Positions 2,382 to 22,700 of a stretch of 52,650 bases of DNA are shown here, in pieces (the first letter of the stretch is position 1; each line of letters begins with the position of its first letter). Location of the stretch: positions 1 through 52,650 of IMG/VR virus record IMGVR_UViG_3300046789_000054, one strand, 5' to 3'. The stretch comes from a virus (lineage: Duplodnaviria; Caudoviricetes). Under the pieces are notes generated by a model. It worked only from the letters and a program-made list of their open reading frames with translations, was not told where the DNA came from and ran no database searches. The translations under genes were made by a program, and so were the position numbers.

Positions 2382-2426
2382 GTGTTACATACCGGTCATC
2401 GCTCTACCTATGATCTCGGAGACGAA

Positions 2427-3314
2427 ATGACGGCTACGCGACTCGGCTCCTTCGAGCTGAATTCAGTGACACTAGGTGACTGCCGCAAGCTCGTGCTGGA
2501 CCTCCCCGATGACAGCATCGATGTCGTAGTGACCAGTCCACCGTACTGGGGTCAGCGGCTGTCGGAGGGCAACGGTGTAGAGAGCGACCCTCGGCACTAC
2601 GTCGCCGAGCTCCGAGAGCTGTTCGCTGCCCTCATGCCCAAGATCAAGCCGGCTGGACTGGTCTGGATGAACCTCGGCGATGCTTACAACACGCCCATCA
2701 ATTGGCGGGAAGGCGACCACGCTTATAGCAGTCTGGGTCCCGACTCAAATGGTTTGCCAGCTACAAATTCCGCCTACACGAAGCCCCGCCACAGGCGGCG
2801 TGCGTACCTGGATCCCACGGTTCCCTGGTTGCAATACGGCAACTTGCTTAGCTTGCCTTACCGGCTCGTCATCGCAATGTCCGATGACGGGTGGCTGTTC
2901 CGCGGCGAGGTCATCTGGCGCAAGCGCAACCCGATGCCCGAAGGGCAGTGCCGGCGGCCCCATCGCCAGCACGAGTCTGTCTATCTGTTCGCGAGAACTG
3001 AAAGACATGCCTTCCGCACTAAGCCGCCGGTCGGCTCGGTGTGGGAAATTGGAAACGAAAAGATCGCCGGCCTTAGACACTTCTCACGCTTCCCGGTGGA
3101 GCTACCACGTCGGTGCGTCGAGGCGTACGGGCGAGCGGAACGAGACGTGGTCGTCCTAGACCCATTCAGTGGCTCCGGCAGTACCGGCGTTGCTGCCCTG
3201 CGCCTTGGCTGCTCGTACGTAGGCTTCGAGATAGACCCGGCGCAGGTGTTGGCATCGAACACGAGGCTGAGCAGTGTGGTAGCGGAGCATGCCGGGCTTG
3301 CCGCATCAGAGTGA
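2427..3314 (+). CDS. DNA methyltransferase, N4-C/N6-A beta class
   Basis: Motif IV 'VTSPPY' N-terminal and motif I 'VLDPFSGSGSTG' C-terminal; ATG 2427 after GGAG; more A/T-ending codons than neighbours. Confidence 0.9.
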   Translation: MTATRLGSFELNSVTLGDCRKLVLDLPDDSIDVVVTSPPYWGQRLSEGNGVESDPRHYVAELRELFAALMPKIKPAGLVWMNLGDAYNTPINWREGDHAYSSLGPDSNGLPATNSAYTKPRHRRRAYLDPTVPWLQYGNLLSLPYRLVIAMSDDGWLFRGEVIWRKRNPMPEGQCRRPHRQHESVYLFARTERHAFRTKPPVGSVWEIGNEKIAGLRHFSRFPVELPRRCVEAYGRAERDVVVLDPFSGSGSTGVAALRLGCSYVGFEIDPAQVLASNTRLSSVVAEHAGLAASE

Positions 3315-3370: not shown

Positions 3371-3403
3371 GAGGCACAGAACAGCCCCCACGAATTCCAA
3401 CCG
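3371..3403 (+). repeat. 33-bp direct repeat, right copy
   Basis: Identical to 2349-2381; forms the 5' arm and loop of the hairpin. Confidence 0.95.
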
Positions 3404-3415
3404 TGGGGGCTGTTC
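3379..3415. terminator. Intrinsic terminator hairpin between convergent genes
   Basis: GAACAGCCCCCACG / CGTGGGGGCTGTTC perfect 14-bp stem. Confidence 0.8.
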
Positions 3416-3434
3416 TTGTGCTCAGAAGGGGTTC

Positions 3435-3683: not shown

Positions 3684-3767
3684 ACCGTACCGCATCTGTC
3701 GGGACTGTCGGGACTGTCGGAACGGATGCTCTTGCGTGAAGTGTCACCAGTGGCGCACACTGCGTAG
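3684..3767. promoter_or_regulatory. Divergent promoter region with three 9-bp direct repeats
   Basis: CTGTCGGGA, CTGTCGGGA, CTGTCGGAA at 3696-3722. Rightward TTGCGT(3732)-18-CACACT(3756)-6-ATG; leftward -10 TACGGT at 3684-3689. Confidence 0.65.
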
Positions 3768-4097
3768 ATGCCTACGGACCAGAGCACTGTCCAGACGGAC
3801 CACGGACCACGGACCACCCCGGACCGCTCCGGTCCCGGACCGCAGACCGCTCCGGTCCCGGACCGCAGACCAGATGAGGACCGCACCGGGAACACCCCGG
3901 TCCAGACCACCAGCAGGGACCACGGACCAGCGAGGAACCGGACTGCGCTGCTCGCAGGCATCGCAGCCGCAGCGCCCGGCCTGTACCTACTCGGATACGC
4001 CCTCGGGCGTCTCCACGTCACCGTCGTAGGCCAAGCACTCACCATCCTCGCCGCCGCAGGGACCGCCATCGCTGTCCTGGTCCGGTGGTCCCGGTGA
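3768..4097 (+). CDS. Small two-TM membrane protein (Spd-like) with repeat-encoded N-terminus
   Basis: Two C-terminal hydrophobic helices; GTGA overlap with next gene. Confidence 0.65.
   Translation: MPTDQSTVQTDHGPRTTPDRSGPGPQTAPVPDRRPDEDRTGNTPVQTTSRDHGPARNRTALLAGIAAAAPGLYLLGYALGRLHVTVVGQALTILAAAGTAIAVLVRWSR
3776..3930 (+). repeat. GGACC-rich array
   Basis: About 10 GGACC plus 3 GGTCC; CGGACCA x3 (3796-3816); exact 23-bp tandem duplication 3822-3844/3845-3867. Confidence 0.85.
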
Positions 4098-4984
4098 AAC
4101 GCCGCCGCGCGGTCTACCTCACACAGGAAGCCATCGGTCTTCTCCCGCCACTGGCCGCACTGGGCCTCGCAGGGTGGCTGCAGACCGAAATCGCACATGC
4201 AGTCCTCGGACTCCCATGGGTGTTCGCCTGGGTCCCGGCCGCGGCGATCGAAGGCGCCGCCGCGTACTGCGCAGTGCTCTACCACCGGCATCTCCTCGCC
4301 GGAGACTCCGCCTGGTCACTGCGGCTCGCGATGCTCATCTACGCCGGGGTGTCCGCTGGGTTGCTGTACTGGCGGTCTACCCAGACGGGTAAGCCGTGGG
4401 AAGTCGCGGCTGCTGTCGGCGGGCTCGCGTTGTCGGCGCTGTACCTGTGGGGCCGCCGGGCGCGTTGGATGCACCGGCAGGAGTTGCGGCGCGCTGGGCG
4501 TCTCGACAAGCAGGCCGTGCGGTTCTCCGTGCTGCGGTGGTTGATGTGCCCGGTGGAGACCCCCGGCGCGTTCCGCTTCGCGGTGAAGCACTCGATCGAG
4601 GACCCCACGGCCGCGCTGGAGCAGTACCGGTCCCGGCGGACTCGGAAGCCTAAGCGGACACCGGACCCGGCACCCACGGCGGCCCGACCCGGGACGTCGG
4701 CACGTGAAGCAGGAGGAACCTCAGTGGCGAAACCTGACCCCGGTCCGGCGACGCCGGTAGAGAGCCGCTTGCACCTGGTAGAGCGGCCCCGCCGGGCGCC
4801 CCGAGCGAACACCGTCGACCTTGAGGATCTGATCCGGACAGCAGCTGGTGCGTTCCCTGACCGGCTGCCCAAGGTGCGGGAGATCGAGGAGACCCTTGGT
4901 GTCCGGAGCCGCGGAACGGCCATGAAGATCCTCGGTGCGCTCCGTGATGCCCGCAACGCGGCGGCGGTGTCCGGTGACGGCTGA
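4094..4984 (+). CDS. DUF2637/SpdB2-like multi-TM plasmid spread protein with C-terminal HTH
   Basis: Four TM segments, 'RFSVLRW..CPVET..AFR' motif, Pro-rich linker, 'LPKVREIEETLGVRSRGTAMKI' HTH-like end. Confidence 0.7.
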   Translation: MKRRRAVYLTQEAIGLLPPLAALGLAGWLQTEIAHAVLGLPWVFAWVPAAAIEGAAAYCAVLYHRHLLAGDSAWSLRLAMLIYAGVSAGLLYWRSTQTGKPWEVAAAVGGLALSALYLWGRRARWMHRQELRRAGRLDKQAVRFSVLRWLMCPVETPGAFRFAVKHSIEDPTAALEQYRSRRTRKPKRTPDPAPTAARPGTSAREAGGTSVAKPDPGPATPVESRLHLVERPRRAPRANTVDLEDLIRTAAGAFPDRLPKVREIEETLGVRSRGTAMKILGALRDARNAAAVSGDG

Positions 4985-6179
4985 CATGGACATCCCGAAG
5001 GGAACACCTGAGTTCGCACCCGCGGACCGTGAGGTCGAGTACCGGGGGGTACCTGCTGGGCCGGCGGTCATCTCTTTCACGGAGCTGCTCGCTTCGGTCG
5101 CTTCGGTGCTGTGGTACTCGCTCGGCGCCGTGGGCCTGCTCATCGCGGCGACGGTAGGTGTAGCGGCACCTGCTGCGATGAGCAGGGCCAGACGTAGACG
5201 GAGCCGGCAGGCGACCACAGGCGGCCGGTCGCCGAGTCGGGCCGTGCGGTCTTCCGGGGGAGGGTCCGGGCGCCTCGGAAGTAGTGGCGGGCGGTCCGGT
5301 CGCGGCGGCAAGCGGTCCGGGTTCCCCGGATTCAGCGGTAGGAAGGCCGCAGGCATTGGACGCCAGGCAGGTGATCGCAGAGCTGTCCCGCGCAGGCCGG
5401 CGCTGGACAGAGGGGGGAAGCGGGGAGCGGGAAGGCTACCGGGATCTGGAACGGGGGCACTTTCTGCTCGGCGTGGGAGACGAGGGACTGGGCAACGTAG
5501 CGGCGCGGCCGGTCGCCGTGGTCTGTTCTCCCTGCCTTTCGGTCGCCGCGCCAGAGGCACCGGCGTGACCGGTCAGAAGCGACGAGCACCCGAGACCCGA
5601 CGACAGCACCGGCGCTTGCCGTCCCTGCTGAAGCGCCTCGGACCGAAGCCACCCAAGCAGCGCACCGGAACAGCATCCCGTCCCCCAGTAGCAGCCGGCG
5701 TACGCCGGATCAGCACACCGAAGACCCCAACGATGGCGCCGCCGCAGAACGTGGTGCCGCAGCCCAACCCCTCAACACCACCTATCACGACCGGACCCAC
5801 CCCGGGACCGGCGACACCCGGAGGCAACACCATGGCAGGACGGCTCGGATTCACTGACCTCGGCGACCAGTTCGTGGACCGCGCTTCACGGTTCGAGGTC
5901 GGCGACGGCGAAATGCTCGAAGCGATCAAGGAACTCGACAGCGTCGGCCCCGCAGTCGGCAACGTCGGGAAGGCCATGTCGATCCTCGCCCGGAAGATCG
6001 ATGACGAGATGCCGCTGGACGCCAAGGTGACCCGTGTCGCCGAAGCCGTCACCCGGTCCCTTTCCGCCGCCGCCGCCGCCGCGGAACTCATCGGTCCCAC
6101 GATCCGCAAGTCCCACTTCCACGACATCCACCGCAGCGAGGCGCCTCGGCCGGGTGAGAAGGGCTGGAACGTGCGGTGA
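4974..6179 (+). CDS. TraA-like plasmid transfer protein
   Basis: N-terminal TM, Arg/Gly-rich linker, helical C-domain ending 'HFHDIHRSEAPRPGEKGWNV' as in actinomycete plasmid genes preceding traB; GTGA-coupled to traB. Confidence 0.6.
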   Translation: MTADMDIPKGTPEFAPADREVEYRGVPAGPAVISFTELLASVASVLWYSLGAVGLLIAATVGVAAPAAMSRARRRRSRQATTGGRSPSRAVRSSGGGSGRLGSSGGRSGRGGKRSGFPGFSGRKAAGIGRQAGDRRAVPRRPALDRGGKRGAGRLPGSGTGALSARRGRRGTGQRSGAAGRRGLFSLPFGRRARGTGVTGQKRRAPETRRQHRRLPSLLKRLGPKPPKQRTGTASRPPVAAGVRRISTPKTPTMAPPQNVVPQPNPSTPPITTGPTPGPATPGGNTMAGRLGFTDLGDQFVDRASRFEVGDGEMLEAIKELDSVGPAVGNVGKAMSILARKIDDEMPLDAKVTRVAEAVTRSLSAAAAAAELIGPTIRKSHFHDIHRSEAPRPGEKGWNVR

Positions 6180-8245
6180 CTGCCCCCCCCGTCGTGAAAC
6201 CGCCGGCCGCGCCTCGACCACGCCGGACCCGCATCCCGATCGACTGGCGGGCCCGGCACGGCATGGTGTGGGGAGCCCTCAACGCGGGGCTCGCGCCGCT
6301 GACCATCGGCCTCGTTGTCGCTGCCATCGAGCGGCAAACCGGTGCGGTCATCCCCGCGTACCTGCCGGTCATCGGCGCGATCCTCGGGGCGTTCGCGACG
6401 ATCCTCGTCACCCTCGTGCACGACTCCGACGCTGGCCTCGAACCTGACCCTGGTCTGCTCACCTACCGGTGCCTGACTTGGTTCGGGTCCGGGGCGTGGC
6501 TCGCGTGGGCGTTCGCGACAGCCCCGTGGCGGGTCCCGCAGATGGCAACGCTCGTCATCGGGGCAGTTACTTTGGCATCCCTCGCGCCGCTCGCGAAACG
6601 CCGCCGCCGCCGGCAAGCCGATGCGCTCCTCCGCGGCGCCGCGAAGCGGAACCCGCTGGAACAGATCCGTGCGGCGTGGGAAGCGCGGCTGCTGCGGATC
6701 ACCCGGCTCCGCTGCGACGTCGTCGGGGTAGAGATGTGGCCATCGGGCACCGGGTACACCCTCGACGTGGACCCACCCGGCGGGAAGACCTGGAGAGACA
6801 TGCAGCAGTACCAGGACGAACTCGCCTCCGACTGCCGCCTCCCGCACGGCTGCGGAATAGCGGTCGGTGTCGGCCACGACCGCCGCGCCGTGCAACTCCG
6901 CGTCACCACGCAGAGCATCACCACGCCGGCAGCGGAACCACTCGACTTCGCGCCCCTGTCGATCCTCGATGGGCTCCTCATCGGCTACCAACGCGACGGG
7001 CAACCCCTCACCGCCGACATCCGGCAAGCGTCGTGGCTTCTCGGCGCGATGAAACGCAAGGGAAAGACGACGCTTCTGCACCGGCTCATCAGCCGGCTCG
7101 TTCGCTGCACCGACGCCGCAGTGTGGGTCATCGACTTCAACGCTGGTGGGCTGGGCCGGCCGTGGGCGACCCCATTCGTAGAGGGACGGGCGGCGCGGCC
7201 GGCCGTGGACTGGGTCGCGGGCACCCCGGAAGAAGCGGTGCTCATGGCACGGGCCGCCGTCGCAGTCGCGCTGGACCGGAAACGCCGCGGGTACGACCTG
7301 AAGCGTCTCCACAACACCACCCTCATGCCGGTCGGCACTGGGGCAGGGCCCAGCGACGGCCCCCCGGAGGTCGTGGTCGTTGGCGATGAATGCTCCGAGT
7401 TCATGGGCTCGTCCTCGCCGTACCGGGGTGCCCGGGACGCGATCGAGCAGTGCGTACGGATCGCGGGTGACGCCGCCGTGAACTTCGTGTTGAGCGTCCT
7501 CGAAGGAACCAGCGAGTCCGTTGCTCGCGCGGTCAAGGCGCAGTTCGCGAACCGGCTCGCGCTCACTATGAGCGATGAGGCTGAGGTGTCGTACATCCTC
7601 GACTACTCCCACCGCGGCGCGAAAGCTGTGAACCTCGAAGACCTACCTGGTCCAGGACACGGCTGGGCCCGAGTCGATGGCGCCGACACCCCGGTCCTGT
7701 TCGCGGTCCCGGACATCCGACCGGACCAGATCGATGAGACCGCGGTCCGGACCGCCGGTCTCAGACCAGGGCTGACCGCTGAGGACATCAGCGCAGTGGA
7801 CCGGGCACTTGGACCAGGTGTCTACGCTGCTCGTTGGACCAGGACCATCCGTGACGTATTCGGTGAGGGGACCACGATGACCGGACCGAAGGACCAGGAC
7901 CAGGGTTGGTCCGGACCGGTGAACGAAGACGCGGTCCTCGCTGAGCTCGCGGCGTCCGGGCAGGAACTCGCTGACGCCGTCGCGGACCTCCACGCCGGCA
8001 GCGGACCAGCGGTCCCGACCGATGGGGAGCTGGAGGCGCTCACCGAGACGACCAGTGGCCCGGACCGCATGGTAGAGATCATCCGTCACGCTGAGGCGGG
8101 GTTGCCTGCTGCGGAGATCCTGGAGCGGCTCCAATCGGAGGGCTACGACGTGTCCCGGGCGACTCTGTACCGGTGGCTGACCGAGGCCGTGGCCTGTTCG
8201 CAGCTCGTGAAACGCGGACCGTGCTACCTACACATCAGTGCGTGA
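6176..8245 (+). CDS. traB: TraB-type FtsK/SpoIIIE conjugative DNA translocase
   Basis: N-terminal TM helices, Walker A 'AMKRKGKTT', Walker B 'VVVGDE', 'QFANRLAL' Arg-finger region, 'PGHG', C-terminal wHTH 'VSRATLYRWL'. Confidence 0.85.
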   Translation: MTAPPVVKPPAAPRPRRTRIPIDWRARHGMVWGALNAGLAPLTIGLVVAAIERQTGAVIPAYLPVIGAILGAFATILVTLVHDSDAGLEPDPGLLTYRCLTWFGSGAWLAWAFATAPWRVPQMATLVIGAVTLASLAPLAKRRRRRQADALLRGAAKRNPLEQIRAAWEARLLRITRLRCDVVGVEMWPSGTGYTLDVDPPGGKTWRDMQQYQDELASDCRLPHGCGIAVGVGHDRRAVQLRVTTQSITTPAAEPLDFAPLSILDGLLIGYQRDGQPLTADIRQASWLLGAMKRKGKTTLLHRLISRLVRCTDAAVWVIDFNAGGLGRPWATPFVEGRAARPAVDWVAGTPEEAVLMARAAVAVALDRKRRGYDLKRLHNTTLMPVGTGAGPSDGPPEVVVVGDECSEFMGSSSPYRGARDAIEQCVRIAGDAAVNFVLSVLEGTSESVARAVKAQFANRLALTMSDEAEVSYILDYSHRGAKAVNLEDLPGPGHGWARVDGADTPVLFAVPDIRPDQIDETAVRTAGLRPGLTAEDISAVDRALGPGVYAARWTRTIRDVFGEGTTMTGPKDQDQGWSGPVNEDAVLAELAASGQELADAVADLHAGSGPAVPTDGELEALTETTSGPDRMVEIIRHAEAGLPAAEILERLQSEGYDVSRATLYRWLTEAVACSQLVKRGPCYLHISA

Positions 8246-8365
8246 GTCTCACCGTCTCACGTGTCTCACCGTCTCATGCCCCCATGAGACGCACGTTTCC
8301 GCAGGTCAACAACCCCCACCCCCTGAGACAGGCATCTGTCTCATGAGACAGTGAGACGGTGAGAC
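8246..8365. repeat. clt-like transfer locus (GTCTCA/TGAGAC array)
   Basis: GTCTCA at 8246, 8254, 8263, 8271, 8338; TGAGAC at 8285, 8324, 8344, 8352, 8360; about 8-bp period, directly after the traB stop. Confidence 0.8.
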
Positions 8366-8369
8366 AGCC

Positions 8370-8975
8370 ATGATGGGCACCAGCCACGCACTGTCCGGCG
8401 CTGCGGTCTGGCTCACCGGATGCGCCGCCACTACGGGTCTCGGGATGCACCCAGCAGCCGACGTCGTGATCCTCGGGACGGCGGTGTGCGCCTACTCCGC
8501 TCTGCTGCCAGATATGGATCATCAGGGGTCCCGGTCGGCCCGGTCCCTCGGGCTGCTGACGCTGGGCCTGTCCCATCTCGTGGGGGCACTCTCCCGCATC
8601 GCCTACGAACGGACCAAGACACACTTGGACCGGCCGAACCGGTCCGGTCACCGCGGTCTCACACACACGGTCCTAGCAGCTGTGGTCCTCGGCTGTCTGG
8701 TCTCGGCAGGGATGATGCTCGGTCCGGTCCCGGACCTGTGGTGGACCGGACTGCCGGTCCTGGTCGGCTGCCTGGTCCATGACTGCGGCGACGGCTGCAC
8801 GCACTACGGTGTTCCGCTGTTCTGGCCGGTCCTGATCCGGGGGCAGCGGTGGTACTGCGTGGGGACCCCACGGGTGTTGCGGTTCCGGACCGGCGGTCCA
8901 GTTGAGGCGGTCTTGGTGACGCCGGTCCTGGTCCTCAGCGCTGCCCTAGCTGGGTTGCTGGTCCTGGCTGGCTGA
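8370..8975 (+). CDS. YdjM-like membrane metal-dependent hydrolase
   Basis: 'MMGTSH', 'LLPDMDH', 'HRGLTHT', 'HDCGDGCT..GVPLFWP' motifs and TM helices. Confidence 0.85.
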   Translation: MMGTSHALSGAAVWLTGCAATTGLGMHPAADVVILGTAVCAYSALLPDMDHQGSRSARSLGLLTLGLSHLVGALSRIAYERTKTHLDRPNRSGHRGLTHTVLAAVVLGCLVSAGMMLGPVPDLWWTGLPVLVGCLVHDCGDGCTHYGVPLFWPVLIRGQRWYCVGTPRVLRFRTGGPVEAVLVTPVLVLSAALAGLLVLAG

Positions 8976-9012
8976 CTGGCCAGTCTCGGATGCGGTCCCG
9001 TTCAGGAGGGCT

Positions 9013-9186
9013 TCATGGGATGTCCTCCACGTTCTCTACCGTCTTCATCTCCTTGATACCGCCACGCCGGTTCACGACCACAGTCACAGGCTGATACTCA
9101 GGCAGGTCCTTGACAGCCATCAAGATCTCCGCAGCGGTCATACCCTGCTTCCGGTTCATCGCGTACGTCACAGTGGTTCGTCTCAC
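9013..9186 (-). CDS. Small hypothetical protein
   Basis: GTGA overlap with upstream HTH gene; 57 aa. Confidence 0.55.
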   Translation of the reverse strand: MRRTTVTYAMNRKQGMTAAEILMAVKDLPEYQPVTVVVNRRGGIKEMKTVENVEDIP

Positions 9187-9416
9187 GGCTGGGCCTTCCG
9201 GTGCGCAGCGATCATCTGTCCGATACGGGACTGGGACAGGCTGAGTTGCTTGCCGACTTCGATCCACGACAGTGCCTTGCAGGCGGCGCACACGGCGGCG
9301 TTCCGCGCTTCACGGAGTTCGTGGAGCCGCGCCATGGAGTCGGCCTTCTCCTGGGTCATGGCGGCGGTGATCTGTCGGTACTCGGAGAGGATGGCGTCGC
9401 CTTGGGGTTGCGTCAT
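9183..9416 (-). CDS. Small HTH DNA-binding protein (probable repressor)
   Basis: 'LSWIEVGKQLSLSQSRIGQM' HTH; TATAGT -10 8 nt upstream. Confidence 0.75.
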   Translation of the reverse strand: MTQPQGDAILSEYRQITAAMTQEKADSMARLHELREARNAAVCAACKALSWIEVGKQLSLSQSRIGQMIAAHRKAQP

Positions 9417-13845: not shown

Positions 13846-13882
13846 GAGCAGCCCCCGCAGGCTAAAGGTGCGGGGGCTGCTC
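13846..13882. terminator. Hairpin after lysis cassette
   Basis: GAGCAGCCCCCGCA / TGCGGGGGCTGCTC 14-bp stem. Confidence 0.8.
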
Positions 13883-13915
13883 TGCCTGATCAAGGGCACC
13901 TTCGATACTACAGGG

Positions 13916-14257
13916 TCAGGCCGCTGAAGCGGGTGCCTTCGCGGTCACCTGCGGACGCACGAAGATCACCGCGATCGTCATCGACACCGCCGACAGCAGC
14001 AGCGCCTGCTTCTCCGCAGGCAGGTCATACCCGAACGCCACAGCCGCGTAGAAAACTGCCTGCACAACACCCAGCAGCACCGGAAGGAACCGGTCGGATT
14101 TCAGCCCGAGCGCAGCGAGCATCGTGAGCCCACCCAGGACCGTGTTCACCGTCCCGACCTGGTCATCGGACCAGTGCAGCCAGAACGCCGACAGGACAGA
14201 CAGCAGAGAAGCCACAGCAGCGATGATCGCCGCCGGCTCCCGGTCGAACAGCTTCAT
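13916..14257 (-). CDS. Holin
   Basis: Four TM helices, 'REPA' start and 'RPQVT' end typical of actinophage holins; in lysis cluster. Confidence 0.75.
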   Translation of the reverse strand: MKLFDREPAAIIAAVASLLSVLSAFWLHWSDDQVGTVNTVLGGLTMLAALGLKSDRFLPVLLGVVQAVFYAAVAFGYDLPAEKQALLLSAVSMTIAVIFVRPQVTAKAPASAA

Positions 14258-14562
14258 GACGGTTCCTCTCGGTCAGGGCGCCGAAGATGCGCCAACTGTG
14301 TACGGATCAGTATCGACGCCCGCCACCACCCCGCCGCGGCGAACGCACCGAAGAACAGCAGCAGCAGCACGGGGTGGCCCGGGTAGTCACCGAACACAGC
14401 CCGCGCCAACGTCAGCAGCAGCACGACAGCCTCGATGCTCATGAACGTCATCAGGTGCCAGCCCATCTCCGACCGCCACCACGGCGTCAACGCGAACAGG
14501 GCAACGAACGTGCCGATGCCGCCCAACGCGACAACAGTCAAGACCAGTAGAGCAGTGTTCAT
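14254..14562 (-). CDS. Membrane protein (putative holin)
   Basis: Three TM helices, 'WWRSEMGWHLM'. Confidence 0.65.
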   Translation of the reverse strand: MNTALLVLTVVALGGIGTFVALFALTPWWRSEMGWHLMTFMSIEAVVLLLTLARAVFGDYPGHPVLLLLFFGAFAAAGWWRASILIRTQLAHLRRPDREEPS

Positions 14563-14762
14563 GCGTCCCCCCGGAGCGCCTTGTCCATCAGCTCAGAGAA
14601 GTGATTCTTCCGTCTGAGCTCCAACAGTGAATCCGTGACCCGGTGGATCCGCGCCCATCGAGTCGCCTGCTCACTGAGCTTCCTGCTCGCGGCTTCCAGC
14701 GCTTCCGCGGCCTCATCACCGCACGTAGGTGCGGTGTCGTTCCGGACTTCGTCTTCGGTCAT
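14559..14762 (-). CDS. Lysis-cluster small protein
   Basis: 'LRRKNHFSELM' C-terminus; coupled on both sides. Confidence 0.65.
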   Translation of the reverse strand: MTEDEVRNDTAPTCGDEAAEALEAASRKLSEQATRWARIHRVTDSLLELRRKNHFSELMDKALRGDA

Positions 14763-19732: not shown

Positions 19733-22700
19733 TCACACCCTCCGGGCTACGGTCGCTGCGACCTTGTGAGCCACGATCAGAGGGTCCGTCGCGGGTGAGT
19801 ACACGTGGTAAGTGTCCCCGCCCCGAGAAGCGGGCCCACCAGGCGGATCATCCTGCCCGCGGCGGCGGGTAGCTGGTGTAGGTATCGGGTCCTGCCCCAG
19901 CCGGGCACCGAACCCCGCAGCAGCGCCGTCGCCGCCCCGGACCCGACGTCCGATCGATGCCCACTGCTCATCGGTCAGGACCGGTTTCGGCTGCAACACT
20001 CTGAGCTGCTCCAGACTGAACAGCGCCTCGGGGCCACCGGTCCCGTTGTACACCGTGCTCAGACCCGGTGGGAGGACCCCAGCCGAGTCGAACGACAACG
20101 CGTCCTTACGGGCCGCGACGTGCACGTGGCTGAAGTGCTGGTCGAACACCGACCGGTAGAACGAGGCGCCCACCTTCCGACCGTTCTTCACGAACCACGA
20201 CGGGGAATGGATGAGTTCGAGGAGCCGGTTCGCGATTGCGTAGAACCCCTTCGCGATGCGCGCCATCCCAGCCGAGCCGCCACCGATCAGGTCAGCTGCC
20301 AACCCCTGCCCGTGATACCCCGGGTCACCAGGTCGGAACCCGCTCGACAGCCGCGCCGCCGGGTTGAAGCGTTGCGCGACCGCGAGGATCGCACCGATCG
20401 AAGACCCCGGTTTCGACCCCAACGACGCTGGCCCCCCGGAGAAGATCGCACCGACCGTCTCGACCTTGTCCTTGATCCAGTCGATGATGCCCGTCAGGAG
20501 TCTCCGCCCAACACCGGCGAGTGCCCCACCGATCGCCCCTCCCGGTGTCCGGGAGAACTTCGCAGCGAAGCCCCGCAGCGCACCGAGGGGGTTCGCGAGG
20601 AAATCGAACGGTCCGCCCGCTGGCCCACCGCGGCTGCCGACCAACCCACCGGTTGCGTAGCCGCGGAGCTTCCCCGCATTGATCGCTTCGAGCAGCGGCA
20701 GATACTTGCCGGTCTGTCGCGTGTTCACGACGAACTCACCCGACGCGACCGGGGCGAGCATGTTGTCGGTGTGCGACGGGCGGCCGGGGATCTGCCCACC
20801 GCGGGCGAACCCCGCCGGCAGGGACACCTTCCACCCAGACGCCCCCGAGATGTTGAACAGCGAACCGATCTTCCGCGCCGCGGCGAGGATCCCGTTGTTC
20901 AAGATCGTTTCCACCACGAACCGTACGGGTGCCTTCGCGGCTTCCTTGATCGACGCCCACGCCGCAGCGATACCAGCCACTCCCCGCTTGAACCGGGCCA
21001 CGACCTGGTCCTGGATGAACGACGCGAAGATCTCGAAGATCCGCTTGATACCGGCCCACCCGTTCGCGATGGCCTGCCGCACCCCGTTCCACACCATCAG
21101 CACGATCCCCTGGAACCAGCGGAACCGGGCCACGAGCCACGCGATGCCGATCTGGATACCCAGCCAGATCCCCTGGATACCGCGCCACGCGAAGTCGATC
21201 GCGGCCTTGATCCCGGCCCACACCGGCAAGATCACCGTCTGGTACAGCCACGTGAACCAGGTTCCGAGGACCTTCAAGCCGGCCTGGATCACCCCGAACC
21301 AGAACTGCACCGCGCCCCACACAACCCCAGCGGCTACCTGCATCGCAGCCCACACAGGTTGGATAACGTTCTCCCAAAGCCACATGAACGCAGCACCGAG
21401 GATCTTCAACCAGACCTGCGCGAGCCCGAACCAGACCTTGATGATGACCATCGCGATCTGAATCGCGAGCGCGATCGCTGCCCAGATCGGTCGGATGACG
21501 TTCTGGTACAACCACACGAACACCCCACCGAGGAACTTCAACGCGGTCCAGATGTTCAGAAGGATCGGCTGGAGGATGCCCCACGCCCACACAGCGGCTT
21601 TCTGGATGCCGGACCATGCGGCCTGCACGATGTTCCGGAACGTCTCCGAGTTCTTGTACGCCAGCACGATCGCGACGACCAGAGCCACGATGATCGCGAT
21701 GATGATGCCGATCGGGTTCGCCGTCATCGCCGCGTTCAGCGCCCACTGCACCACCGTCCACGCCGCGGTAGCTGCGGCGACGGCCTTCGTCGCGATCGAT
21801 GACGCGACTGTGGCAGTCGTAGACCGGATCGTCGCGAGGAGCGCCGAGTTCGCCGCCGTTGAGTATGCCCACTGCGCAGCGGTGACCAGGGCCATCACCC
21901 CCGACCATGCGACCATCGCGACCCGCTGCGCGTTCGCCGCGACCGTCATGACCGCTGTCTTCGCCGCGACCGCCGCCTGAGCGACCGCGAGCGCCGTGAG
22001 GTAGACACGGTGCAGCAGGTAGATCCCCGTGAGGATCCCCAAGACCACCGCGAGTACCTTCGCGGTCTTCTCGTGCTCCCGGAGCCACTGCACTGATGTC
22101 TGCGTCCAAGAGACCACGGTAGCGATTGCCCCGCCTAGGGTTCGGAGTGCTACGAGGACCGCCCCTGAGATGGTCTGAGCCCACGCGCTGATCGTGGTGG
22201 AGTTCTGCTGCACCCACTGGGCGAGGCGCTCGAACGCCGGCACACCCACGTCCGCGACGAACCCCAGCAGCCGTTGCATGATCGGGAGTAGACCGGCGCC
22301 GATCTTCGCTTTCGTGTCATCGAGCCGCGCCGACAAGATCTTCTGCGAGTTCGCCAGCCCACCGGAGGTTTCAGCGAAGTCGTTCGCTGCGGCACGCCCG
22401 TCGCGCTGGATGATCGCGAGCGTCGCGGTGGCCTTCTCAGCGGCCGTCAACGATTTCGCGTTCTTCTTGTGGGTGATGCTCAGCGCCTCAGTTTCGACGC
22501 GGGCCGCGTTGATGTTCGGGATGAGGGCTTGCAGTGAGTCGAACTCGCCGCGGAACCCGGCCTGGATACGTGCCAGCACATCAGCCGTTTCGAGGTTGTT
22601 GAACGACCCGAGGTCAGCGGCGAGCTTGACGACGCCCTGGGACATCTTCACGGCTCGGGGCCCGCCGATGCCGAGCTGCTGGAACATGTTCCCGAGGCTG

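Follow-up and report, generated by a model that had tools for sequence, protein, structure and literature searches.

The window analysed here, the whole 52,650-bp stretch of IMG/VR virus record IMGVR_UViG_3300046789_000054, is a complete-looking tailed-phage genome (1-52650) that carries a TraB/FtsK module, and within this module we found a short word, RGACCR, piled up in three dense arrays that are overprinted on coding DNA. The pile-up is genuine and is kept by selection at the DNA level. Our best explanation, to which we give a probability of about 0.4, is that RGACCR makes up a second cis array, separate from an intergenic array of GTCTCA that resembles a clt (cis-acting transfer locus), and that it is read by a protein of the module other than the winged helix-turn-helix (wHTH) domain of TraB.

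The RGACCR word and its three clusters

The preliminary description of this DNA had counted about 15 GGACC and 7 GGTCC toward the end of traB and about 6 and 15 beyond it, and a direct count reproduces these figures exactly (15/7 in 7640-8245, 0 in 8246-8519, and 6/15 in 8520-9000). Its chance expectation of one or two of each per 600 bp was also right; the whole window, 52,650 bp long, holds 131 + 169 = 300 GGWCC, so that 500 bp contain about 2.8 sites when the two orientations are pooled. An unbiased scan of the window for local pile-ups ranks GGACC first of all 5-mers, and GTCTCA first of all 6-mers. The sites fall into three clusters. Cluster B (7649..8220; 22 GGWCC, of which 15 are GGACC and 7 GGTCC) occupies the last third of traB, where it takes in the linker and the closing part of the motor domain, ending short of the C-terminal wHTH. 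Cluster C (8527..8998; 21 GGWCC, 6 GGACC and 15 GGTCC) covers the last three quarters of ydjM, with one site past the stop codon; the traB stop codon has cluster B on one side and cluster C on the other, both within 600 bp. Cluster A (3776..4091; 16 GGWCC, 11 GGACC and 5 GGTCC) lies outside the region described earlier, in the low-complexity N-terminal half of orf3768 at the operon head, and contains three tandem copies of ACGGACC and two 23-bp units with GGTCCCGGACC. Between them, the three genes hold 59 cluster sites in 1.4 kb of coding DNA.

The array word is RGACCR, chiefly GGACCR and less often AGACCR. A purine follows GGACC at 93% of the 59 cluster sites versus 47% of the 241 sites elsewhere; relative to the density outside, the clusters hold 55 GGACCR where 3.1 are expected (17.6-fold) and 9 AGACCR where 1.5 are expected. 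Seven one-mismatch controls (CGACCR, TGACCR, GGACCY, GGGCCR, GGACGR, GAACCR and GGATCR) stand at 0-1.6-fold in the clusters, which excludes a compositional effect and argues against a decaying relic. Nearest-neighbour spacings, inspected by eye, show no helical or other period.

The preliminary description had allowed that amino-acid and codon usage might explain the enrichment, and they do not. We ran three kinds of shuffle, 1000 each: exchanging synonymous codons within the stretch, redrawing codons from window usage, and permuting codon order. The last 603 nt of traB (7640-8242) hold 22 sites versus 9.5±2.1, 7.3±2.2 and 4.0±1.8 in the three kinds; ydjM (8370-8972) holds 20 versus 9.0, 6.4 and 4.5; and orf3768 holds 16 versus 7.2±1.8, 6.1±2.0 and 2.8. 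In all three genes, 0/1000 shuffles of each kind reached the observed count. As an internal control we took the first 1464 nt of traB, which are unenriched (5 sites versus 4.0, with 367/1000 shuffles reaching 5). The cluster sites occupy all three reading frames, and codon choice is visibly bent toward them: GGA makes up 11/52 (21%) of Gly codons in the clusters versus 28/589 (5%) in reference genes, and CCA 9/34 (26%) of Pro codons versus 31/414 (7%). Even conserved residues of TraB are spelled this way; the conserved PGPG is encoded CCT GGT CCA GGA and the invariant R530-P531 is encoded AGA CCA, rare codons that create the word in both cases. Both orientations are enriched, and we therefore favour a signal in duplex DNA over one in RNA. 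A second cis signal at the DNA level, distinct from the GTCTCA array, is the part of the earlier proposal that stood; of the roles suggested for it, directional guides like those of FtsK are unsupported and a relic recognition sequence is disfavoured (below).

That the arrays are functionless, having arisen from low-complexity protein, from the expansion of repeats or from a bias in mutation, we consider very improbable, and for the window this reading is largely refuted. It draws on the repetitive low-complexity coding DNA in which cluster A and four arrays treated below (those of phage P1312 and of loci L012, L013 and L019) are found, on the L012 excess, which vanishes once the amino-acid sequence is kept, and on the effect of amino acids alone, which about double the expectation in the window (from 4.0 to 7.3). 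Yet clusters B and C lie in the conserved end of a motor domain and in a membrane protein of a Pfam family, use all three frames and beat every synonymous shuffle; the one-mismatch words are unenriched, and a repeat scan found no long repeats connecting the clusters.

Orientation follows the encoded proteins

The preliminary description further held that the polarity of the word flips across the GTCTCA array. Numerically it does, between clusters B and C (Fisher p = 0.015), but not beyond what the amino acids of the two overlapped proteins predict. With amino acids kept and codons redrawn, the expected GGACC:GGTCC is 3.6:2.4 in cluster A, 4.1:3.1 in B and 1.8:3.4 in C; the observed GGACC fractions of 0.69, 0.68 and 0.30 compare with expected fractions of 0.60, 0.58 and 0.35 (binomial p = 0.61, 0.39 and 0.82). 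The polarity flip is a by-product of the overlapped proteins, with the caveat that the word itself may have bent the amino-acid sequences from which the orientation expectation was drawn. Each orientation is 2.1- to 4.1-fold over the amino-acid-preserving expectation in each cluster.

Sequences that guide DNA motors, KOPS (FtsK orienting polar sequences) for FtsK and SRS (SpoIIIE recognition sequences) for SpoIIIE, are asymmetric 8-mers with genome-wide skew that are read by the C-terminal wHTH of the motor. If the word worked in the same manner, its orientation would steer TraB to the GTCTCA array from both sides. The raw counts have this form, with GGACC:GGTCC of 26:12 to the left of the array (clusters A and B) and 6:15 to the right (Fisher p = 0.006), and the array of phage P1312, which lies to the right of a clt-like array of its own, is also rich in GGTCC (27:18). 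Unlike KOPS and SRS, however, RGACCR is near-palindromic, with a GGWCC core that is self-complementary except for its middle base, is confined to three clusters, and takes its orientation from the coding context. In none of the three clusters do the orientation fractions depart from the amino-acid expectation, and even the rarer orientation stands 2.1- to 3.3-fold above it; outside the clusters the word is unskewed (38:47 over the minus-strand block of 33 kb, 5:6 and 4:2 elsewhere, at densities of 0.9-3.1 sites per kb). Because the fractions are as the amino acids predict and no genome-wide skew exists, the guide reading is unsupported, and we rate it as hardly probable. A caution for motif hunting is that a near-palindromic word inside genes can owe all of its strand polarity to the encoded proteins.

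Candidate readers of the arrays

The traB gene (6176..8245, + strand) encodes a membrane-anchored DNA translocase of the FtsK/SpoIIIE type with N-terminal membrane segments, an FtsK-type motor with the Walker A sequence GKGKTT, and a C-terminal wHTH-like domain to which matches are weak (residues 616-670, E 0.06-0.11). The product belongs to phrog_31069 (E 2e-73) and its profile matches the solved FtsK motor 2iuu (E 4e-9), while PF01580 is not matched at E <= 1. By tblastn, it is 29-36% identical to TraB/FtsK-like genes of actinomycete plasmids and phages, the latter including Streptomyces phages Hiyaa, Galactica, Spocter and Keanu and Thermobifida phage P1312. We found no close relatives in genome contigs or, by single-sequence search, in viral contigs; a metagenome scan yielded a single 3.5-kb fragment (L018). 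The best TraB proteins in a set of 5.8 billion, P0002-P0004, are 37-38% identical by BLASTP (39% in our alignment A1) and carry a wHTH resembling the one in the window.

Directly at the traB stop codon begins the GTCTCA(C) array (8246..8365), with ten copies of GTCTCA in 133 bp where 0.04 are expected. Four copies are direct, at 8-9 bp spacing, and are followed by inverted copies that make a 29-nt imperfect inverted repeat. In the cited passages, the clts described occupy 50-175 bp and combine inverted repeats with about 3-9 direct repeats, which are asymmetric and 5-9 bp long (PMC3583192), and a general statement elsewhere is that clts contain direct 8-bp repeats read by TraB (PMC4447253). 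That of plasmid pWTY27, footprinted by TraA, has four TGACACC repeats plus inverted repeats and comprises 16 bp of traA and a further 159 bp; the GTCTCA array resembles it in size, form and place (PMC3583192). The GTCTCA array fits these dimensions and the RGACCR arrays do not, with their 59 sites, 1.4 kb and near-palindromic core. The GTCTCA array is thus the likelier clt and the predicted docking site of TraB, presumably read by the C-terminal wHTH. The RGACCR arrays do share with clts that they are short-word cis arrays beside the gene of an FtsK-type translocase and partly overlapping it, just as the pWTY27 clt includes part of traA; they differ in their near-palindromic sites, in covering three genes, in the presence of the GTCTCA array as well, and in belonging to a phage rather than a plasmid.

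The word recurs in P1312. There GGACC forms the strongest local cluster of the 60-kb genome, with 30 sites in 600 bp, and the extended site is symmetric, YGGWCCR. The array starts about 350 bp past the TraB stop codon, in the disordered linker of gene 062, whose product has an N-terminal helix-turn-helix (HTH)-like stretch, the linker and a C-terminal membrane domain. Gene 062 holds 45 GGWCC versus 14.3±3.3 and 23.2±3.4 in amino-acid-preserving shuffles (maximum 34). Straight after the TraB stop codon, P1312 has its own array of nine GTCAC copies, among which GGTGTCA is the pWTY27 repeat in reverse complement. The passages of the P1312 paper that were searched do not mention the GGACC array (PMC4569894). 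The motors of the two TraBs are 35% identical, while their last ~100 residues give no alignment at E <= 100; of the other module proteins, only the one encoded before traB can be aligned between the two phages, and that at its C-terminal end. The word therefore does not co-vary with the C-terminal domain of TraB, window and P1312 sharing YGGWCCR/GGACCR, although these are two independent lineages only. We count two and not four because L006 and L007 are near-copies of P1312 (L004), at 96-98% identity, and because the excess at L012 comes from a peptide repeat: L012, tried as a third lineage, was rejected, its 22 sites comparing with 16.1±3.0 from amino acids, in a 12-bp in-frame tandem repeat. 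Within the P1312 group, 6/227 motif columns and 44/1125 columns elsewhere are variable (p = 0.44). That the word is a relic TraB recognition sequence from before a wHTH swap, as the preliminary description also proposed, is disfavoured by the unenriched one-mismatch derivatives and by the same word standing above synonymous shuffles in P1312.

We examined 15 other TraB loci. In 11 of them (7 of 11 lineages), a local word cluster at log10 P <= -10 lies within ~3 kb of TraB, a threshold that is not clean, as the best non-module cluster scores -8.5 in the window and a second, unrelated cluster scores -18.6 in P1312. The words differ. L010, L011 and L014 have CGTACGG, at 73-88 copies per 600 bp in apparently non-coding DNA; L013 has GGTACC in the low-complexity part of the gene before traB; L008 (CGCAGC) and L005 (GCGACA) have theirs in the linker of a membrane and HTH gene; and L002 has CGCCCC, by the local-cluster scan only. 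The arrays of L005, L008 and L013 stand above amino-acid-preserving shuffles. Unlike the window, none of the 15 loci (0/15) has an array inside the 3' end of traB.

The CGTACGG loci are striking in their own right. At L010 1640-2410, and likewise in L011 and L014, about 800 bp of apparently non-coding DNA is packed with CGTACGG/CCGTACG in both orientations; in these three related IMG/VR phage contigs, the field is directly 5' of a sequence resembling a promoter, from which the TraB operon follows. P1312 has a second cluster, far from its TraB module, of AAGGGT/AACCCTT (record positions ~56733-57300, L017; 12-14 in 600 bp versus 0.2-0.3 expected).

These loci bear on a less probable but still strong alternative, that it is TraB itself that loads at the RGACCR arrays, which would form an extended clt in and around traB, and that GTCTCA is something else, for example an operator before ydjM. 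The short-word arrays near TraB in most lineages speak for it, as does the fact that TraB is the sole module protein experimentally known, from the passages cited, to need a cis site (PMC4447253, PMC3583192). Moreover, the recognition helices of the L010-type and L013 TraBs are nearly the same, and their words, CGTACG and GGTACC, are related. Against it, window and P1312 use the same word though the C-terminal domains of their TraBs are unrelated, the traB stop codon already has at it an array of the form described for clts, and 59 sites in 1.4 kb with a 5-6 bp near-palindromic core are unlike the clts described in the cited passages (PMC3583192); the lack of arrays inside other traB 3' ends also counts against it. 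It is on the unrelated C-terminal domains, the clt already in place and the near-palindromic site that we disfavour the TraB wHTH as reader.

For the preferred reading, a second cis array with another reader in the module, the most likely predicted reader is the product of 4085..4984 (+ strand), a membrane protein of phrog_10376 with a C-terminal three-helix, HTH-like domain. Its AlphaFold2 model has four long helices at 4-136, disorder at 187-245 and helices at 246-296, with a mean predicted local distance difference test (pLDDT) score of 68; homologues are 43-49% identical in our alignment A2 and 43-57% by BLASTP. PF10935 (DUF2637) has 0 matches to the window protein and matches one of eight family members (E 0.003), and a DUF2637 gene is found at the analogous place in plasmid L002. 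Array position points to such genes: in P1312 (L004), L005 and L008, the module array is in the disordered linker of the membrane and HTH gene, cluster A of the window abuts its membrane HTH gene, and the L010 array is ~730 bp downstream of its own. In each lineage where the fetched DNA includes this gene, the array is in it or within ~1 kb of it.

The leading candidate for the role of the arrays is a predicted coating or tethering site for this Spd-like membrane HTH protein. Three dense, orientation-indifferent RGACCR arrays, at the operon head, in the last third of traB and in ydjM, bracket the intergenic GTCTCA(C) inverted-repeat array; many low-affinity sites flanking the clt could then coat or tether the DNA at the membrane, beside the TraB pore. 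Such an arrangement would be akin to a centromere or, in Streptomyces plasmids, to the pairing of SpdA with sps. A broader proposal, which we put forward only tentatively, is that phage-borne and plasmid-type TraB modules have two cis codes, a small asymmetric clt read by TraB and a long, orientation-indifferent field of a 5-7-bp word that is overprinted on tolerant coding DNA and read by a membrane-anchored HTH protein. The field would tether clt-flanking DNA to the membrane pore, giving a phage genome a centromere-like handle by which it is transferred as double-stranded DNA or spreads within the mycelium, and YGGWCCR would have been conserved though the DNA-reading domain of TraB was replaced.

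Several points weigh against the preferred reading. The HTH of the 4085-4984 protein comes from a medium-confidence part of the model (pLDDT 58-73) and from inspection by eye; the protein has no Foldseek match in the PDB (E <= 0.001) and no Pfam HTH match, and the linker of its gene carries no array. Pairwise BLASTP of the membrane HTH proteins of the window, P1312 and L012 gives nothing significant, so that a reader common to them is only a supposition. The word itself is common to two independent lineages only, the window and P1312, which may have converged on it. Finally, the L010-type modules show one array only in the fetched stretch, the huge CGTACGG field; if TraB of this type needs a clt, that field would have to be it, which favours TraB as the reader.

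The linkers that cannot be aligned among the 4085-4984 homologues in alignment A2 repeat the tripeptide RTP, encoded CGG ACC CC in L019 (10520-10780), and these repeats may mirror, in the protein, a GGACC word conserved in the DNA. At L019, which encodes a homologue of the membrane HTH protein, CGGACC is modestly in excess, always as Arg-Thr codons; an FtsK_SpoIIIE gene adjoins this homologue too, and the locus does not separate the two candidate readers.

Plasmid centromeres are iterated sites of the parC/parS type, or the 7-bp heptads of the omega protein. The RGACCR arrays resemble them in their many close short sites, direct and inverted, suited to coating by a small DNA-binding protein, and differ from them in lying inside genes; profile searches of the window ORFs (open reading frames) found no ParA, ParB, ParR or ribbon-helix-helix partner in the module. 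The TraB recognition sequence of plasmid pSVH1 occurs 13 times in the window, scattered and not clustered.

A further likeness is to sps and its reader SpdA2, known from pIJ101 and other Streptomyces plasmids, where a palindromic site stands in the coding DNA of a transfer or spread gene and is bound by a small protein encoded in the module (PMC4170104). In the passages cited, sps is a conserved 12-bp palindrome, CGTCACGTGACG, present in 1-3 copies in or next to spdA, so that SpdA2 binds its own coding DNA, and its role is in stability and not in transfer (PMC4170104). The RGACCR arrays are, by contrast, 20-fold larger. The window has no copy of CGTCACGTGACG, and no Pfam or PHROG match points to a homologue of SpdA, whose N-terminal ~38 aa are conserved, a result from profiles, with no search by SpdA sequence made. 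We file the overprinted RGACCR field as a new form of the known clt- or sps-like cis sites; a full-text literature search, judged from its listings, turned up no paper on long overprinted word fields in TraB modules.

Two further explanations concern readers of other kinds. In the first, which we regard as improbable, the arrays are operator or roadblock fields at which a repressor, the 77-aa product of 9183-9416 or another phage regulator, silences a potentially toxic tra operon. The operon has cluster A starting 8 bp past its first start codon and clusters B and C over its end, and a small HTH-like gene is convergent on it; in plasmids, traB-traR is a kil-kor pair in which TraR binds GGTAC-containing repeats, as the cited passages state (PMC4447253). 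But we found no GntR/TraR homologue among the ~110 window ORFs scanned, repressors need few promoter sites rather than ~60 in coding DNA, and the P1312 array comes after TraB, within another gene.

In the second, which seems to us more improbable still, GGWCC is read by a host factor such as a segregation or nucleoid protein, or by a phage DNA-modifying enzyme such as a methyltransferase. GGWCC and CGGWCCG are targets of restriction-modification systems (AvaII and RsrII), the word is common to two phages with mostly unalignable module proteins, and among the genes of the window are four that resemble DNA methyltransferases and one that is Mom-like, one of these immediately preceding the operon. 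A target of this sort is not expected to cluster beside TraB in both phages and nowhere else, however; no DNA methyltransferase is annotated near the P1312 array, and we know of no candidate host factor for GGWCC.

How actinomycete TraB systems choose and handle DNA is known for a handful of plasmids only; even pSAM2, the archetypal actinomycete integrative and conjugative element, has no described clt (PMC9513070). If the preferred reading is true, the model of double-stranded DNA conjugation would gain a further component, a second and much larger site field around the clt; the Spd-like membrane proteins, of which little is understood, would acquire a function open to testing; and the arrays would illustrate how hard a DNA signal may press on codon usage, and on the protein sequence as well.

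Genome setting and minor observations

The tra operon runs on the + strand at 3768-8975, in the order orf3768, the 4085-4984 membrane protein gene, a 414-aa gene, traB, the GTCTCA array and ydjM. The 109-aa orf3768 (3768..4097, +), which overlaps the start of the 4085 gene, has one hydrophobic helix beyond the features given above and no family match in Pfam and PHROG profile searches; we infer that it is a real gene. The 414-aa gene before traB (4935..6179, +) has a C-terminal 88-aa segment in common with P1312_064, at 39% identity. The last operon gene, ydjM (8370..8975, +), encodes an inner-membrane protein of the ydjM family (PF04307, E 3.7e-25; phrog_20744). The small convergent gene (9183..9416, - strand) encodes 77 aa with a C-terminal stretch that looks HTH-like by eye only and no family match in the same profile searches; its product is a candidate alternative reader or repressor.

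Phage genes identified in the window are those for large terminase, portal, a Mu-F-like protein, holin, tail fibre, YqaJ exonuclease, a RuvC-like resolvase and WhiB, besides those for the methyltransferase-like and Mom-like proteins; it is a methyltransferase-like gene that lies immediately 5' of the tra operon. No integrase, ParA or GntR gene was found among the ~110 ORFs scanned. The presence of the module in a tailed phage with no integrase found also raises the question of movement or persistence in mycelia without virions.

RGACCR is free of stop codons in all frames, and antisense ORFs therefore stay open across the arrays, on the - strand at window 7643-8134 and, in P1312, at L004 6315-8024 (-), one being annotated there as gene P1312_061. 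These long antisense ORFs are probably not genes.

Downstream of the methyltransferase gene at 2382-3314 there is a perfect 15-bp inverted repeat, AGAACAGCCCCCACG / CGTGGGGGCTGTTCT, at 3378-3416, a likely terminator separating this gene from the tra operon. About 50 bp 5' of the first start codon of the operon, a 9-bp CTGTCGGGA-like unit is repeated three times in tandem (3694-3720), and one extra CTGTCGGGA-like unit is found at 9370-9382, in the 5' part of the small HTH-like gene 9183-9416; these may be an operator pair that links this gene with the operon.

Other local word clusters lie elsewhere in the window. ATCGCGA occurs eight times in 600 bp (0.4 expected) at 21419-22050, inside a 1157-aa tape-measure-like gene, and AGCAGC/CAGCAGC is in excess at 13847-14600 (9-11 in 600 bp versus ~1 expected), at the end of the tail-fibre gene and in the next small genes.

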